Of a DNA stretch of 64,000 bases, positions 10,840 through 16,007 are shown in pieces. The DNA is taken from NCBI RefSeq assembly GCF_044324875.1, contig NZ_CP172185.1, one strand, 5' to 3'. The notes beneath the pieces are model-generated. The model had not been told where the DNA came from and did no database searches. It was given only the letters and a program-made list of their open reading frames with translations. Position numbers and translations under genes: made by a program. This stretch comes from Escherichia coli. Lineage in GTDB: Bacteria > Pseudomonadota > Gammaproteobacteria > Enterobacterales > Enterobacteriaceae. Position 1 is the stretch's first letter. Each line of letters begins with the position of its first letter.

Positions 10840-10869
10840 AAGCCAACCTTAAGAACTTAAGGTTGGCTT
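10840..10869 (+). terminator. Perfect palindrome followed by T-rich tract; likely adiC terminator
   Basis: aagccaaccttaag aa cttaaggttggctt followed by aattttgcttt. Confidence 0.55.
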
Positions 10870-10872
10870 AAT
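10856..10872 (+). promoter_or_regulatory. Candidate BasR/PmrA box upstream of eptA
   Basis: CTTAAG-gttgg-CTTAAT, two hexamers with 5-bp spacer, about 47 bp upstream of the eptA ATG; overlaps the terminator palindrome. Confidence 0.45.
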
Positions 10873-10918: not shown

Positions 10919-12562
10919 ATGTTGAAGCGCCTACTAAAAAGACCCTCTTTGAATTTACTCGCCTGGCTATTGTTGGCCGCTTTTTATATCTCTATCTGCC
11001 TGAATATTGCCTTTTTTAAACAGGTGTTGCAGGCGCTGCCGCTGGACTCGCTGCATAACGTACTGGTTTTCTTGTCGATGCCGGTCGTCGCCTTCAGCGT
11101 GATTAATATTGTCCTGACACTAAGCTCTTTCTTATGGCTTAATCGACCGCTGGCCTGCCTGTTTATTCTGGTCGGCGCGGCTGCACAATATTTCATAATG
11201 ACTTACGGCATCGTCATCGACCGCTCGATGATTGCCAATATTATTGATACCACTCCGGCAGAAAGTTATGCGTTGATGACGCCGCAAATGTTATTAACGC
11301 TGGGATTCAGCGGCGTGCTTGCTGCGCTGATTGCCTGCTGGATTAAAATCAAACCTGCCACCTCGCACCTGCGCAGTGTTCTTTTCCGTGGAGCCAATAT
11401 TCTGGTGTCTGTACTGCTGATTTTGCTGGTCGCCGCACTGTTTTATAAAGACTACGCCTCATTGTTCCGCAACAACAAAGAGCTGGTGAAGTCCTTAAGC
11501 CCCTCTAACAGCATTGTTGCCAGCTGGTCATGGTACTCCCATCAGCGACTGGCAAATCTGCCGCTGGTGCGAATTGGTGAAGATGCGCACCGCAACCCAT
11601 TAATGCAGAACGAGACACGTAAAAATTTGACCATCCTGATTGTCGGCGAAACCTCGCGGGCGGAGAACTTCTCCCTCAATGGCTATCCGCGTGAAACTAA
11701 CCCGCGGCTGGCAAAAGATAACGTGGTCTATTTCCCTAATACCGCATCTTGCGGCACGGCAACGGCAGTTTCAGTACCGTGCATGTTCTCGGATATGCCG
11801 CGTGAGCACTACAAAGAAGAGCTGGCACAGCACCAGGAAGGCGTGCTGGATATCATTCAGCGAGCGGGCATCAACGTGCTGTGGAATGACAACGATGGCG
11901 GCTGTAAAGGTGCCTGCGACCGCGTGCCTCACCAGAACGTCACCGCGCTGAATCTGCCTGGTCAGTGCATCAACGGCGAATGCTATGACGAAGTGCTGTT
12001 CCACGGGCTGGAAGAGTACATCAATAACCTGCAGGGTGATGGCGTGATTGTCTTACACACCATCGGCAGCCACGGTCCGACCTATTACAACCGCTATCCG
12101 CCGCAGTTCAGGAAATTTACCCCAACCTGCGACACTAACGAGATCCAGACCTGTACCAAAGAGCAACTGGTGAACACTTACGACAACACGCTGGTTTACG
12201 TCGACTATATTGTTGATAAAGCGATTAATCTGCTGAAAGAACATCAGGATAAATTTACCACCAGCCTGGTTTATCTTTCTGACCACGGTGAGTCGTTAGG
12301 TGAAAATGGCATCTATCTGCACGGTCTGCCTTATGCCATCGCCCCGGATAGCCAAAAACAGGTGCCAATGCTGCTGTGGCTGTCGGAGGATTATCAAAAA
12401 CGGTATCAGGTTGACCAGAACTGCCTGCAAAAACAGGCGCAAACGCAACACTATTCACAAGATAATTTATTCTCCACGCTATTGGGATTAACTGGCGTTG
12501 AGACGAAGTATTACCAGGCTGCGGATGATATTCTGCAAACTTGCAGGAGAGTGAGTGAATGA
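10919..12562 (+). CDS. eptA: Lipid A phosphoethanolamine transferase
   Basis: 547 aa; N-terminal TM helices plus sulfatase-like periplasmic domain; start chosen at ATG 10919 ([12 protein letters not shown]...), ORF track begins upstream at an alternative codon. Stop overlaps basR start. Confidence 0.9.
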
Positions 12563-13227
12563 AAATTCTGATTGTTGAAGACGATACGCTGTTATTGCAG
12601 GGATTGATTCTAGCGGCACAAACCGAAGGCTACGCGTGCGATGGCGTGACAACCGCGCGGATGGCGGAACAAAGCCTTGAGGCCGGTCATTACAGCCTGG
12701 TGGTACTGGATTTAGGGTTACCCGACGAAGATGGACTGCATTTTCTCGCCCGTATCCGGCAGAAAAAATACACCCTGCCGGTACTGATCCTCACCGCTCG
12801 CGATACGCTGACCGACAAAATCGCCGGGCTGGATGTCGGTGCCGATGACTATCTGGTGAAGCCTTTTGCGCTGGAAGAGTTACACGCCCGTATCCGCGCC
12901 CTGCTACGACGCCATAATAATCAGGGCGAAAGTGAGCTGATTGTTGGCAATCTGACGCTGAATATGGGTCGCCGTCAGGTATGGATGGGCGGTGAAGAGT
13001 TGATTCTGACGCCCAAAGAATATGCTCTGCTGTCACGGTTAATGCTCAAAGCAGGCAGTCCGGTGCATCGGGAAATTCTCTACAACGACATCTATAACTG
13101 GGACAATGAACCCTCGACCAACACCCTGGAAGTGCATATCCACAATCTGCGCGACAAAGTGGGCAAAGCCCGTATCCGCACCGTGCGCGGCTTTGGCTAT
13201 ATGCTGGTCGCGAATGAGGAAAACTAA
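12559..13227 (+). CDS. basR: Two-component response regulator (OmpR family)
   Basis: 222 aa; receiver domain MKILIVEDD...DLGLPDEDG and winged-helix C-terminus. Confidence 0.95.
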
Positions 13228-13236
13228 TTGAATCTG

Positions 13237-14328
13237 ATGCGTTTTCTGCGCCGACCAATATCGCTGCGCCAACGGCTGATATTGACCATTGGGGCCATTT
13301 TGTTGGTGTTTGAGCTGATCAGCGTCTTCTGGCTATGGCATGAAAGTACCGAGCAGATTCAGCTGTTTGAGCAGGCGCTACGCGACAATCGCAACAACGA
13401 TCGCCACATCATGCGTGAGATCCGCGAGGCGGTCGCCAGCCTGATCGTCCCCGGCGTCTTTATGGTCAGCCTGACGCTATTTATCTGCTATCAGGCGGTA
13501 CGCCGCATCACCCGGCCGCTGGCGGAGCTGCAAAAAGAGCTGGAAGCGCGCACCGCCGACAACTTAACGCCTATTGCCATTCACAGCGCCACCCTCGAAA
13601 TCGAAGCGGTGGTTTCGGCGTTGAACGATCTGGTCAGTCGCCTGACCAGCACGCTGGATAACGAAAGGTTGTTTACCGCTGACGTCGCGCACGAACTGCG
13701 AACGCCACTGGCGGGGGTGCGTTTGCATCTGGAACTGCTGGCGAAAACGCATCACATTGATGTAGCACCGTTAGTGGCTCGACTTGATCAGATGATGGAG
13801 AGTGTCTCCCAGCTGCTGCAACTGGCGCGTGCCGGACAGTCATTTTCTTCCGGGAATTATCAACATGTAAAACTGCTGGAAGATGTCATTCTCCCCTCGT
13901 ATGACGAACTCAGTACCATGCTCGACCAGCGACAGCAAACCCTGCTATTGCCAGAGAGCGCCGCCGACATCACCGTTCAGGGTGATGCAACCCTGCTGCG
14001 GATGTTATTGCGAAACCTGGTAGAAAACGCCCATCGTTACAGCCCGCAAGGCAGCAACATTATGATTAAGCTGCAAGAAGATGGCGGAGCGGTCATGGCC
14101 GTTGAAGATGAAGGACCGGGTATTGATGAGAGTAAATGCGGGGAGTTGAGTAAAGCGTTTGTACGTATGGACAGCCGTTATGGCGGGATTGGTCTGGGGT
14201 TAAGTATTGTCAGCCGCATTACACAGTTGCATCACGGGCAGTTTTTCCTGCAAAACCGGCAAGAGACTTCCGGCACGCGGGCCTGGGTACGGCTGAAGAA
14301 AGATCAGTACGTGGCAAACCAGATATAA
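13237..14328 (+). CDS. basS: Sensor histidine kinase
   Basis: H-box AHELRTPL and ATPase domain motifs; start set at ATG 13237 (MRFLRRP...); ORF track starts at TTG 13228. Confidence 0.9.
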   Translation: MRFLRRPISLRQRLILTIGAILLVFELISVFWLWHESTEQIQLFEQALRDNRNNDRHIMREIREAVASLIVPGVFMVSLTLFICYQAVRRITRPLAELQKELEARTADNLTPIAIHSATLEIEAVVSALNDLVSRLTSTLDNERLFTADVAHELRTPLAGVRLHLELLAKTHHIDVAPLVARLDQMMESVSQLLQLARAGQSFSSGNYQHVKLLEDVILPSYDELSTMLDQRQQTLLLPESAADITVQGDATLLRMLLRNLVENAHRYSPQGSNIMIKLQEDGGAVMAVEDEGPGIDESKCGELSKAFVRMDSRYGGIGLGLSIVSRITQLHHGQFFLQNRQETSGTRAWVRLKKDQYVANQI

Positions 14329-14393
14329 AGAAAGCTGCTGACCACCAGCACGCTGAACACGGTAGTTAAACTTTCATAAACACGGTTTTTCAT
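14304..14393 (-). CDS. pmrR: Small membrane protein PmrR (29 aa), overlapping the 3' end of basS on the opposite strand
   Basis: Minus-strand ATG at 14393 with GGAGGA RBS 8 bp upstream; translation MKNRVYESLTTVFSVLVVSSFLYIWFATY; absent from the ORF track because of its size. Confidence 0.75.
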   Translation of the reverse strand: MKNRVYESLTTVFSVLVVSSFLYIWFATY

Positions 14394-14437
14394 TGCACTC
14401 TCCTCCGTTAACCTGGAGGAGAGTATGCGCGTCAGAG

Positions 14438-14453
14438 ATTAAGTGAACCTTAA
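14438..14453 (-). promoter_or_regulatory. Candidate BasR/PmrA box for pmrR
   Basis: Minus-strand CTTAAG-gttca-CTTAAT about 45 bp upstream of the pmrR start. Confidence 0.45.
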
Positions 14454-14504
14454 GACTTCAATTGGCCTGATAAGACAGCGTCACATCAGGCCATCCGTTT
14501 CAGC

Positions 14505-16007
14505 TTATTCATCAATTCGCGGATGTTGCTGCACCAGGCGAGTACGTTTCGCCTGCAAATCGGCAATCTCGTGGTCAATATCATCGATTTTCTGCTCGAT
14601 ATTATCGTAATGCTCGACGAGAATTTCCTTCGCTTCCTGTATATCTGACGCCGCCGGTGTCGCACCTTTCAACGGACGATTCGCCGTCTCTTTCATGGTT
14701 ACGCCGGTGATTAAACCAACCACCGCCACTACCATCAGGTAATAGGCAGGCATCATCAAATTCTGCGAGCTTTCGACCAGCCAGGCCGCCAGCGTTGGCG
14801 TCAGACCGGCAACCAGCACCGAAATATTAAATGCCGCCGCCAGCGCGCTGTAACGGATATGCGTCGGGAACATCGCTGGCAAGGTAGAGGCCATAACGCC
14901 CGTAAAGCAGTTAAGGATCACCGCCAGCATCAGTAACCCGGCAAAAATCAGGCCGATGACGTTACTGTTAATCAGAATAAACGCCGGGATCGCCAACACA
15001 AACAGTGCAACACTACCAAGTAGCACAAACGGACGACGGCCAAAACGGTCACTCAGCAAGCCCATCACCGGCTGGACAAACAGCATACCGATCATAATGG
15101 CGATAATAATCAGCACCCCGTGGTCTTCGGAGTAATGCAGGTTATGCGACAAATAACTCGGCATATAGGTCAGCAACATGTAGTAAGTCACGTTGGTGGC
15201 AATTACCAGACCAATACATGTCAACAGGCTGCGCCAGTATTTAGTGGCAATCTCTTTAAACGAGACTTTCGGGCCATCCTGCAAACCTTCGCGGTCGCCC
15301 TGCTCCAGTTTATCAACATGCTGCTGGAACGCCGGAGTCTCTTCCAGCGCATGGCGCAGGTAAAGCCCGATAATCCCTAACGGCAGAGCAATAAAGAACG
15401 GAATACGCCAGCCCCAGTCGAGGAAGTTCGCTTCGCCGACAATGGTCGAAATTAACACCACCACGCCCGCACCCAGCACAAACCCGGCAATAGAACCGAA
15501 GTCCAGCCAGCTGCCCATAAATCCACGTTTACGGTCAGGGGAGTATTCCGCAACAAATATCGACGCCCCGGTATATTCACCGCCGACCGAGAAACCTTGT
15601 GCCATCTTACAGATCAACAGCAGAATCGGTGCCCAAATACCAATCGTGTCGTAGGACGGTATTAAGCCAATACAGAAGGTACTGATCGACATAATCACAA
15701 TAGTGATAGCGAGGATCTTCTGGCGACCATATTTATCGCCCAACATACCAAAGAAGAGTCCACCAAGCGGTCGAATCAGAAAGGGAACGGAGAAAGTGGC
15801 AAGTGCAGCAACCATCTGCACGCTGGGGTCAGCCCCCGGGAAAAAAACTTTACCTAATGCGTAAGCAACAAAACCATAAACACCAAAATCGAACCATTCC
15901 ATTGCATTACCCAGTGATGCTGCGGTAATGGCTTTACGCAATTTACCGTCATCAATAATGGTGACATCACGAAGGGTAATCGGTTTTACTTTTTTCCTTT
16001 TCAGCAT
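14505..16007 (-). CDS. proP: Proline/glycine betaine:H+ symporter (MFS) with C-terminal coiled coil
   Basis: 500 aa; MFS transporter with coiled-coil tail (…DIDHEIADLQAKRTRLVQQ…); start set at MLKRKKVKPITL. Confidence 0.95.
   Translation of the reverse strand: MLKRKKVKPITLRDVTIIDDGKLRKAITAASLGNAMEWFDFGVYGFVAYALGKVFFPGADPSVQMVAALATFSVPFLIRPLGGLFFGMLGDKYGRQKILAITIVIMSISTFCIGLIPSYDTIGIWAPILLLICKMAQGFSVGGEYTGASIFVAEYSPDRKRGFMGSWLDFGSIAGFVLGAGVVVLISTIVGEANFLDWGWRIPFFIALPLGIIGLYLRHALEETPAFQQHVDKLEQGDREGLQDGPKVSFKEIATKYWRSLLTCIGLVIATNVTYYMLLTYMPSYLSHNLHYSEDHGVLIIIAIMIGMLFVQPVMGLLSDRFGRRPFVLLGSVALFVLAIPAFILINSNVIGLIFAGLLMLAVILNCFTGVMASTLPAMFPTHIRYSALAAAFNISVLVAGLTPTLAAWLVESSQNLMMPAYYLMVVAVVGLITGVTMKETANRPLKGATPAASDIQEAKEILVEHYDNIEQKIDDIDHEIADLQAKRTRLVQQHPRIDE

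Follow-up and report, generated by a model that had tools for sequence, protein, structure and literature searches.

Within the 64,000-nucleotide stretch of Escherichia coli DNA that was analysed (the window), the end of the eptA-basRS operon is faced by a short reading frame on the opposite strand, with proP lying beyond it. The features of this region, with the Shine-Dalgarno sequence and the REP-like palindrome read directly from the letters, are:

10856-10872, plus strand: PmrA/BasR box CTTAAGGTTGGCTTAAT of the eptA promoter, the only other strict box in the window
10919-12562, plus strand: eptA, phosphoethanolamine transferase, first gene of the eptA-basRS operon (NCBIfam NF008619 EptA, 1084 bits; RefSeq CDS)
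12559-13227, plus strand: basR/pmrA, response regulator (NCBIfam NF007928 PmrA, 390 bits; RefSeq CDS)
13228-14328, plus strand: basS/pmrB, sensor kinase, its last 25 nt overlapping pmrR (NCBIfam NF008025 PmrB, 644 bits; RefSeq CDS)
14304-14393, minus strand: pmrR CDS, 29 codons and TGA, small membrane peptide, LpxT activity modulator
14397-14424, minus strand: leader hairpin, 5' arm ACTCTCCTCC at 14424-14415, loop at 14414-14407, 3' arm GGAGGAGAGT at 14406-14397
14401-14406, minus strand: Shine-Dalgarno sequence GGAGGA, 7 nt 5' of the pmrR ATG
14414-14415 (K-12 4332094-4332095), minus strand: predicted PmrA-dependent transcription start
14422-14427, minus strand: candidate -10 hexamer CATACT (family consensus nAnACT)
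14438-14454, minus strand: PmrA/BasR box of the pmrR promoter, CTTAAG-gttca-CTTAAT (CTTAAGgttcaCTTAAT), a strict pattern match
14464-14492, minus strand: REP-like palindrome GGCCTGATGTGACGCTGTCTTATCAGGCC, between proP and the PmrA box
14505-16007, minus strand: proP, co-directional with and upstream of pmrR (NCBIfam NF007927 ProP; RefSeq CDS)

The basS gene starts here at 13228, whereas the start used in the K-12 reference is the ATG at 13237.

The minus-strand frame runs from the ATG at 14393 to the TGA at 14306-14304 and, from the sequence and the list of open reading frames, encodes the 29-residue peptide MKNRVYESLTTVFSVLVVSSFLYIWFATY. The best explanation of this frame, to which we give a probability of about 0.95, is that it is the known gene pmrR, controlled by PmrA and encoding an inhibitor of LpxT. 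The peptide scores 74.2 bits (E 5e-21) on the NCBIfam equivalog NF033224 (PmrR), for which the curated cutoff is 30, its residues 1-29 aligning with profile positions 1-29 over the full length, and it is identical to UniProt PMRR_ECOLI. RefSeq places a CDS named pmrR at the same position (WP_000797657.1, 'LpxT activity modulator PmrR') and annotates the gene in all E. coli records listed, with the region found in 5412 of 5426 complete genomes. The K-12 counterpart is b4703, 'small regulatory membrane protein PmrR', and the window DNA is 99.3% identical to K-12 over a 601-nt region. The earlier note on this DNA was right in calling the frame a coding gene, in naming it pmrR and in giving it a promoter with a PmrA/BasR box, as the NCBIfam equivalog, RefSeq, K-12, UniProt and experiments in E. 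coli (PMC8129183, PMC11429745) all agree. Its description of the gene as unlisted holds for a length-thresholded list of open reading frames, but not for public annotation, where b4703 and WP_000797657.1 are present. The observation is therefore correct yet already known, with the gene, the PmrA box, the overlap with pmrB and the role of the peptide in polymyxin and bile-salt resistance through LpxT inhibition all annotated and published; the locus shows that a 29-codon gene and the site of its regulator can be recovered from raw sequence alone.

Translation signals are where they had been claimed, with the ATG at 14393 preceded at a spacing of 7 nt by GGAGGA, and a GGAGG or GAGGA core is kept at the Shine-Dalgarno position in 45 aligned loci. 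The hydrophobic 29-residue peptide of the earlier note is present in exactly that sequence, and residues 9-27 (LTTVFSVLVVSSFLYIWFA) are, on direct reading, hydrophobic and uncharged, giving the single membrane-spanning segment in a peptide of about 29 residues that characterises PmrR. That this is a small membrane peptide accords with UniProt and NCBIfam, and in E. coli PmrR-6xHis has been found in the membrane fraction (PMC11429745).

The direct repeat of the BasR/PmrA type that had been proposed upstream, CTTAAG-N5-CTTAAT, is indeed found at 14454-14438, and is both statistically unexpected and conserved in position. The strict pattern YTTAAK-N5-YTTAAK has only two matches in the 64-kb window, at the pmrR and eptA promoters, where 0.08 would be expected, and none of 100 shuffles gave two. 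The box also fits the definition CTTAAG-N5-xTTAAT, which was derived from verified Salmonella and Klebsiella boxes (PMC3973317).

The candidate -10 hexamer lies 10 nt 3' of the box, and across 45 aligned pmrR promoters it has A2 in 42, A4 in 44, C5 in 41 and T6 in all 45. In the eptA promoters box, 10-nt spacer and hexamer are arranged in the same way, and A2 and T6 are invariant; the spacer is 10-11 nt in pmrR and eptA promoters, and the -10 role of the hexamer and the placement of the box as the -35 are predictions. From this geometry transcription would begin at 14414-14415, 7-8 nt after the -10 and directly 3' of the hairpin 5' arm, and 27 of the 45 loci have an A at 7 nt past the hexamer; the exact -10 and start site are thus putative. 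A consensus scan found no canonical sigma-70 promoter at 14200-14600. Activator-dependent promoters lack a -35, and for that reason this result is not counted against the pmrR promoter.

PmrA-dependent transcription of pmrR in E. coli is supported by experiment, as deletion of the PmrA box at the pmrR promoter in pmrA-constitutive E. coli leads to polymyxin B sensitivity and deoxycholate resistance (PMC8129183), and pmrR is among the genes induced, together with eptA, arn and basR, in E. coli B selected with iron(III) (PMC13405929). On the opposing side, a pmrR promoter reporter gave no response to low Mg2+ (PMC11429745). Ribo-RET start-site reads at pmrR, in favour of the gene, were 5-fold higher in low Mg2+ (PMC11429745).

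Relatives were gathered through pmrB loci, of which 80 were listed, none from Salmonella, a genus represented here only through an Rfam consensus. The conservation that the earlier note had suggested examining is apparent in 47 loci, spread over more than 12 genera, where a frame of 29-30 codons with invariant F21 and W25 lies downstream of pmrB, with the 5' end of a PmrA box (at most one mismatch) 57-63 nt before its ATG, while peptide identity drops to 17-41%. Klebsiella and some ten further genera have divergent, unnamed PmrR-like peptides with this promoter architecture, the counterpart in Klebsiella pneumoniae being a 30-residue frame, MQKINFREYLAVATALVIIVAFFHQWVLTF. The peptides of K. 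pneumoniae and its relatives are labelled 'hypothetical', and their recognition matters for an understanding of colistin resistance in these organisms.

How pmrR works, on this explanation, can be set out in a few steps. Phosphorylated BasR/PmrA would bind the box at 14454-14438 and activate the promoter whose putative -10, CATACT, lies 10 nt downstream, giving a short mRNA translated from the ATG at 14393 by means of GGAGGA. The product, a 29-residue single-helix peptide of the inner membrane, probably inhibits LpxT, the lipid A 1-phosphotransferase, which would leave position 1 of lipid A open to EptA for the addition of phosphoethanolamine. This modification would lower the negative charge of the surface, raising polymyxin resistance and lowering deoxycholate resistance, and work in Salmonella suggests that PmrR also dampens the Fe3+ signal at PmrB, a negative feedback. 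Inhibition of LpxT is supported by genetic evidence in E. coli (PMC8129183) and by direct evidence reported from Salmonella (Kato 2012). The phenotypes of the box deletion are reversed by deletion of lpxT and complemented by ectopic pmrR in trans (PMC8129183), and complementation by pmrR is lost when the ATG is changed to TAA (PMC11429745). In the literature surveyed, no study was found that shows biochemically that E. coli PmrR inhibits LpxT directly, and we infer the direct contact between PmrR and LpxT in E. coli. Some published results stand against this scheme: the growth defects of pmrR deletion and of overexpression are independent of lpxT (PMC11429745), one type of PmrAB-dependent colistin resistance needs neither PmrR nor LpxT (PMC7790251), and the effects of the region on pmrB mRNA level do not fit a simple feedback model (PMC8004244).

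The position of pmrR invites another explanation, in which its main function is antisense, with convergent transcription or a 25-nt duplex controlling basS/pmrB and the peptide secondary. The stop codon of basS/pmrB, TAA, is at 14326-14328, and the overlap comprises the pmrR stop codon, 7 codons and 1 nt, so that the earlier claim of an overlap by the last 8 codons was close in its extent, the overlap itself being real and 25 nt by measurement. In all 47 loci pmrR lies directly downstream of pmrB and convergent with it, as it does here, which would suit an antisense role, and the function and apparent mRNA level of plasmid-borne pmrB have been found to need 103-126 nt downstream of the gene (PMC8004244), lengths that, mapped onto the window, restore the pmrR -10 first (14431) and the whole of the PmrA box next (14454). 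However, the overlap ranges from -8 to +57 nt among the 47 loci and is 0 or negative in many genera, and the reversal of the box-deletion phenotypes by loss of lpxT, like their complementation in trans by pmrR, speaks for the peptide (PMC8129183). Expression of the PmrA-dependent arnT is also unchanged in the box deletion, which indicates that pmrAB function is intact there (PMC8129183), and the basS/pmrR pair does not appear in the main text of a genome-wide study of sense/antisense duplexes cleaved by RNase III. An antisense main function is thus unlikely. By comparison of these loci, the convergent adjacency to pmrB is conserved and the overlap does not appear to be a conserved functional feature, so that the overlapping layout in itself implies little. 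As for the feedback that the earlier note had read from the layout, the feedback on BasRS described in the literature is one in which PmrR blocks LpxT, lipid A becomes less negative and PmrB receives a weaker Fe3+ signal (Kato et al. 2012, relayed in PMC8004244); this acts by way of the peptide and not through the variable antisense overlap.

It might also be argued that the locus is the non-coding sRNA STnc630 and the 29-codon frame incidental. Rfam RF02052 (STnc630, 'Enterobacterial sRNA') matches 14297-14462 on the minus strand with 181.4 bits against a gathering threshold of 55, over the full length of the model (positions 1-166 of 166). Yet the consensus of the family itself contains promoter DNA, its 5' end being upstream of the PmrA box, together with the Shine-Dalgarno sequence and the complete 29-codon frame, and this frame is translated, as seen from Ribo-RET, the tagged membrane protein and the dependence of complementation on the start codon (PMC11429745). 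The length of the frame and F21 and W25 are also conserved while the nucleotide sequence diverges. A purely non-coding sRNA is therefore very improbable, although an additional RNA-level role of the locus is possible; no description of a function for STnc630 was found in the literature surveyed. Since it spans both the promoter with its PmrA box and the translated frame, STnc630 is better described as the pmrR gene, and the Rfam entry should be relabelled as a small protein-coding gene. Finally, 29-codon frames are common, with several of equal length in the list of open reading frames, but a chance frame beside a chance PmrA-like repeat can be dismissed as next to impossible given the 0.08 strict boxes expected per window, the joint presence of frame, box and spacing in 47 loci, and the family match, annotation and published E. 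coli experiments.

With the locus taken as pmrR, a further feature of it is the leader hairpin, the 3' arm of which contains the Shine-Dalgarno sequence. Its seven-pair core has a folding energy of -12.7 kcal/mol (z -2.3), and the 39-nt leader, at -19.9 kcal/mol, ranks among the most stable 0.27% of the window's 39-mers. The hairpin was found in 46 of 47 loci, with 84.6% of cells paired against 36-52% in slid controls and a covariation score above all 500 of 500 shuffles, and the Rfam STnc630 consensus has it as a helix too. Reading the inverted repeat mainly as a palindromic protein-binding site was rejected, as the arms vary between genera yet stay complementary and the loop varies in length. 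It is less clear to which strand the hairpin belongs, because the totals of G·U and A·C wobbles are balanced (42 vs 37) and the two halves of the stem disagree, the inner stem (31 vs 5) favouring the pmrR strand and the outer stem (11 vs 32) the opposite strand, so that no firm assignment can be made. It is possible that the hairpin acts on the opposite strand, within the 3' UTR of pmrB.

On the pmrR strand, the 5' arm lies between the -10 and the predicted start site. If that start is right, transcripts begun at the PmrA promoter would be without the arm complementary to the Shine-Dalgarno sequence, and only those started further upstream could hide it. In long transcripts the Shine-Dalgarno sequence is predicted to pair with the upstream complementary arm, its probability of being unpaired falling from 0.60 in the short leader to 0.14 in the long one. 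The hairpin may thus be an insulator, with PmrA transcripts lacking the arm and being translated, and read-through transcripts carrying it with their ribosome-binding site closed; this is a tentative reading from modelling, to which we give rather less than an even chance. The source of such read-through would be the co-directional upstream gene, proP in Escherichia and uvrB in most other genera, and a co-directional gene does lie 55-293 nt upstream of pmrR in 42 of 46 loci. In the window, proP is a possible source of read-through into pmrR; no terminator-like site was found between the two, which have been treated as a possible operon (PMC11429745). The REP-like palindrome between proP and the box is a weak, sub-threshold match to naRNA4 (16.9 bits). 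The only terminator-like site, at 14350-14336 with a T-rich tail, falls inside the pmrR frame. Termination there would leave an mRNA without a stop codon, and with a chance expectation of 0.5 such sites it was taken as chance or coding constraint.

Were the hairpin an insulator, synthesis of PmrR would be strictly PmrA-dependent despite constant upstream transcription, and this would be useful since PmrR made in excess harms unstressed cells (PMC11429745). It might also account for published findings on the sequence 3' of pmrB that are hard to explain.

In comparison with known systems, the gene is the same as PmrR of Salmonella enterica and E. coli, as described by Kato, Chen, Latifi & Groisman (2012, Mol Cell 47:897) according to papers that cite them, being identical to WP_000797657.1 and PMRR_ECOLI and sharing the annotation, the PmrA box and the position antisense to the 3' end of pmrB, with no difference at the protein level. 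The PhoQP-induced MgrB and MgtS belong to the same class of peptides of fewer than 50 residues, with one transmembrane helix, induction by a two-component system and a membrane protein as target, and MgrB, like PmrR, feeds back on the sensor (PMC11429745). They differ in having the kinase PhoQ and the transporter MgtA as targets where PmrR has the enzyme LpxT, there is no sequence relation, and the feedback of PmrR on PmrB is, unlike that of MgrB, indirect, through the charge of lipid A. STnc630 covers the pmrR DNA, including the Shine-Dalgarno hairpin, and differs in being filed as a non-coding sRNA.

For the hairpin only, the likeness is to IS10 and IS50, in which fold-back inhibition is reported to shield the transposase gene from outside promoters (Davis, Simons & Kleckner 1985, Cell 43:379; Krebs & Reznikoff 1986). 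What is shared is that the arm able to pair with the ribosome-binding site precedes the point where the gene's own transcript starts, a start that for pmrR is predicted. The differences are that pmrR is a chromosomal regulon gene and not a transposase, that its 5' arm overlaps the -10 and discriminator, and that the arrangement is known here from predictions. If the hairpin does act as an insulator, pmrR would be a tidy chromosomal case of a principle known mainly from insertion sequences.

The short minus-strand frame running into the 3' end of basS (pmrB) is pmrR, a gene that is already known, annotated and experimentally characterised. Translation from its ATG, preceded by GGAGGA, gives a peptide identical to that read by the earlier note, and the overlap described with the basS 3' end is found, amounting to 25 nt in window coordinates from the stop positions of both frames. 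The elements of the locus are as follows.

14393-14304, minus: pmrR ORF of 29 codons, ATG at 14393, TGA at 14306-14304 (sequence and ORF list)
14406-14401, minus: Shine-Dalgarno (SD) sequence GGAGGA, 7 nt 5' of the pmrR ATG
13228-14328, plus: basS/pmrB ORF, TAA stop at 14326-14328
14454-14438, minus: PmrA box CTTAAG-gttca-CTTAAT (sequence)
14427-14422, minus: hexamer CATACT (nAnACT in the family), candidate -10
14415-14414, minus: pmrR transcription start as predicted from hexamer geometry

The neighbours are eptA, basR/pmrA, basS/pmrB and proP by NCBIfam equivalog matches, and the peptide is a full-length match to NCBIfam NF033224, 'LpxT activity modulator PmrR' (74.2 bits, cutoff 30). Of 5426 complete E. 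coli genomes, 5412 contain the 601-nt pmrR region, with pmrR annotated there in every E. coli record among the matches listed; a 100%-identical record and one K-12 record carry the CDS WP_000797657.1 in the same place, b4703 of the K-12 reference (4332116-4332205), 'small regulatory membrane protein PmrR', shows the same 25-nt basS overlap, and UniProt PMRR_ECOLI is the exact peptide sequence. As it is present in RefSeq, K-12 and UniProt the gene is listed in public annotation, thus the word 'unlisted' holds for a length-thresholded ORF list only and not for these records (b4703, WP_000797657.1, PMRR_ECOLI). What the earlier note observed is confirmed in every detail and its interpretation of the locus is essentially correct. 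The start of basS/pmrB itself differs between annotations within 13228-13239: PGAP uses a TTG at 13228, directly against the stop of basR, for a protein of 366 aa, and the K-12 reference an ATG at 13237 for one of 363 aa. Inside the pmrR ORF, 20 nt before its stop, lies a terminator-like stem TGCTGGTGGTCAGCA followed by GCTTTCTTTA (minus strand, 14326-14350); this is probably chance or coding constraint, as its use would yield a non-stop mRNA.

The ribosome profiling or epitope tagging and the examination of promoter dependence that had been proposed for this gene have already been done by others, with published Ribo-RET, tagging and promoter-box work. Ribo-RET start-site reads for PmrR rise 5-fold in low Mg2+, PmrR-6xHis is found in the membrane fraction, complementation of a pmrR deletion is abolished by changing ATG to TAA, pmrR has growth effects independent of lpxT, and a pmrR promoter reporter gave no response to low Mg2+ (PMC11429745). 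A published description of the E. coli locus agrees with that of the earlier note, in that pmrR overlaps the 3' end of pmrB and has a PmrA box of its own; without this box a pmrA-constitutive strain became sensitive to polymyxin B and resistant to deoxycholate. Polymyxin resistance came back when lpxT was deleted, pmrR supplied ectopically complemented, and arnT was still highly expressed, therefore PmrAB function was intact (PMC8129183). In iron(III)-selected E. coli B, pmrR is co-induced with eptA, arn and basR (PMC13405929). In the feedback model of Kato et al. 2012, as recounted in PMC8004244, PmrR inhibits LpxT, lipid A becomes less negative and less Fe3+ reaches PmrB.

The direct repeat of the BasR/PmrA type ascribed to the pmrR upstream region is present, and is one of only two matches to strict YTTAAK-N5-YTTAAK in the 64-kb window, the other (10856-10872) lying just 5' of eptA; 0.08 matches are expected per window and two or more were seen in 0/100 shuffles. 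A scan of the pmrR promoter region with the sigma-70 consensus detected no promoter, which would be expected where the activator replaces the -35. The nAnACT hexamer sits 10-11 nt 3' of the box, with A2 in 42, A4 in 44, C5 in 41 and T6 in all 45 aligned promoters. The eptA promoters at these loci are laid out alike: 10 nt separate the box from a hexamer that keeps A2 and T6 in 16/16, with an extended-10 TG before it. An A stands 7 nt past the pmrR hexamer in 27/45 loci, and from the predicted start the native leader would be about 21 nt. Between the proP stop codon and the box there is a REP-like palindrome GGCCTGATGTGACGCTGTCTTATCAGGCC (minus, 14464-14492), with a weak sub-threshold match to Rfam naRNA4 (16.9 bits).

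Beyond Escherichia the ORF is retained in a number of genera, together with its box and spacing. Eighty pmrB loci were fetched, one genome per species, and a convergent ORF of 28-33 codons directly downstream of pmrB is found in 47 sequences (the window and 46 loci) from more than 12 genera, being 29 or 30 codons long in 45. The carriers are Escherichia, Citrobacter, Klebsiella, Raoultella, Kluyvera, Kosakonia, Phytobacter, Pseudocitrobacter, Trabulsiella, Yokenella, Pluralibacter, some Enterobacter and a few unclassified genomes. Identity to E. coli PmrR drops to 17-41%, with M1, F21 and W25 invariant and W-x-x-[T/S]-[Y/F] kept at the C-terminus, and a PmrA box (at most one mismatch) starts 57-63 nt before the ATG in 47/47. 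Against NF033224 the peptides of Escherichia and Citrobacter reach 72-74 bits, and apart from a single MAG peptide at 36.5 bits no others pass the cutoff; those of Klebsiella, Raoultella, Kluyvera, Kosakonia, Phytobacter, Yokenella and Enterobacter types stay within 0-20 bits and are named just 'hypothetical' or 'uncharacterised' in public sources, and our literature search found no paper on a Klebsiella PmrR. These sub-cutoff ORFs (29-30 aa, convergent to pmrB, box 57-63 nt upstream) are at fetched loci L009-L064, for example in Klebsiella pneumoniae (L022:4050-4142) and at L023, L014, L059 and L032.

Among the fetched loci no such ORF lies beside pmrB in Pseudescherichia, Superficieibacter, Pectobacterium, Rahnella, Rouxiella, Ewingella, Chimaeribacter and a Serratia; the loci without it include L010, L013, L016, L033, L047, L048 and L063-L082. 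In several lineages that keep pmrAB the peptide gene was therefore lost or never gained. In Pseudescherichia vulneris and relatives (L010, L013, L016) the 3' end of a UvrB-like ORF directly follows pmrB. The pmrR/pmrB overlap ranges from -8 to +57 nt; adjacency is kept but overlap is not, therefore an antisense mechanism gains no support from the arrangement, which by itself implies little about the BasRS feedback that had been supposed.

Rfam RF02052, 'STnc630, Enterobacterial sRNA', matches minus 14297-14462 at full length with 181 bits. Within the family consensus lie the PmrA box, the leader hairpin described below and the complete 29-codon ORF, therefore the family is the pmrR gene and promoter rather than a non-coding RNA and the sRNA label is a mislabel; our literature search found no paper mentioning STnc630. 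The stem TGCTGGTGGTCAGCA is also a helix in this consensus.

The leader of pmrR is predicted to fold, with columns numbered in A1, an alignment of pmrR promoter and leader regions.

14397-14424, minus: leader hairpin, A1 columns 39-70 (predicted fold and covariation)
14424-14415, minus: 5' arm ACTCTCCTCC, pairing with the 3' arm
14406-14397, minus: 3' arm GGAGGAGAGT, containing the pmrR SD

In the window the folding energy is -12.7 kcal/mol for the core of seven pairs (z -2.3) and -19.9 kcal/mol for the 39-nt leader, a value reached by just 0.27% of window 39-mers. An equivalent hairpin forms in 46/47 loci of more than 12 genera (mean -17 kcal/mol), although the arms vary by genus: Klebsiella ATCTTC/GAGGAT, Phytobacter CTCCTGA/TCAGGAG, Kluyvera ATCCTTA/TTAGGGT. 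No comparable hairpin is seen in the eptA leaders at these loci (-1 to -11 kcal/mol). Across 45 aligned sequences standard pairs fill 84.6% of cells in the 12-pair stem, against 36-52% with slid partners. Compared with shuffles, which ignore phylogeny, the covariation score is 0.268 against 0.147 and both partners have changed in 40 cells against 15.8 (each 0/500), pairs with double changes being not significant (5 against 3.8); pair 44-65 is C-G in 16, A-U in 13, G-C in 6 and G-U in 4.

A plasmid-borne pmrB allele requires at least 103 nt downstream, with full effect at 126 nt and 86 nt insufficient (PMC8004244). The pmrB-proP intergenic region is 176 nt both there and in the window, therefore these thresholds can be placed on window coordinates.

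14414: +86 end, pmrR -10 and hairpin 5' arm missing
14431: +103 end, -10 and whole hairpin present, PmrA box absent
14454: +126 end, exact end of the complete PmrA box

Thus the phenotype tracks stepwise restoration of the pmrR promoter, and may be due to the peptide, to an antisense transcript or to the hairpin. The 315-fold difference in 'pmrB mRNA' of PMC8004244 might include antisense transcripts from the pmrR promoter, if the qRT-PCR was not strand-specific.

As to what the hairpin does, one alternative places its role on the plus strand, where the inverted repeat could form a stem-loop at the 3' end of the eptA-basRS mRNA (the pmrB 3' UTR). Wobble pairs do not settle the strand (42 G·U against 37 A·C across the stem); the outer five pairs, with 11 G·U against 32 A·C, favour the plus strand, although their 5' side is held fixed by the -10, whereas the inner seven, with 31 against 5, favour the pmrR strand, and by folding energy the pmrR strand is preferred in 32 loci and the other in 13. 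Alternatively, transcription could natively begin further upstream, in which case the hairpin would be a translational switch.

The reading suggested here is that the hairpin may insulate pmrR translation from read-through by proP or uvrB transcripts, which we would put at roughly one in three. The 5' arm spans the 'ACT' of the candidate -10 to the predicted start, therefore a PmrA-initiated transcript would be without it. In the short leader the SD is predicted to be unpaired with a probability of 0.60, against 0.14 in one starting 75 nt upstream (44/45 loci), a contrast that is in part built into the comparison. In 42/46 loci a co-directional gene has its end 55-293 nt upstream of pmrR. This gene is proP in Escherichia and in Citrobacter amalonaticus; most other genera have an ORF of about 672 aa, which for Klebsiella pneumoniae was confirmed to be uvrB, and no terminator-like site was found in the proP-pmrR interval of the window. 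Insulation from read-through is also the principle of fold-back inhibition in IS10 and IS50, and it is in this likeness that the pmrR hairpin is suggested to shield translation from read-through transcripts.
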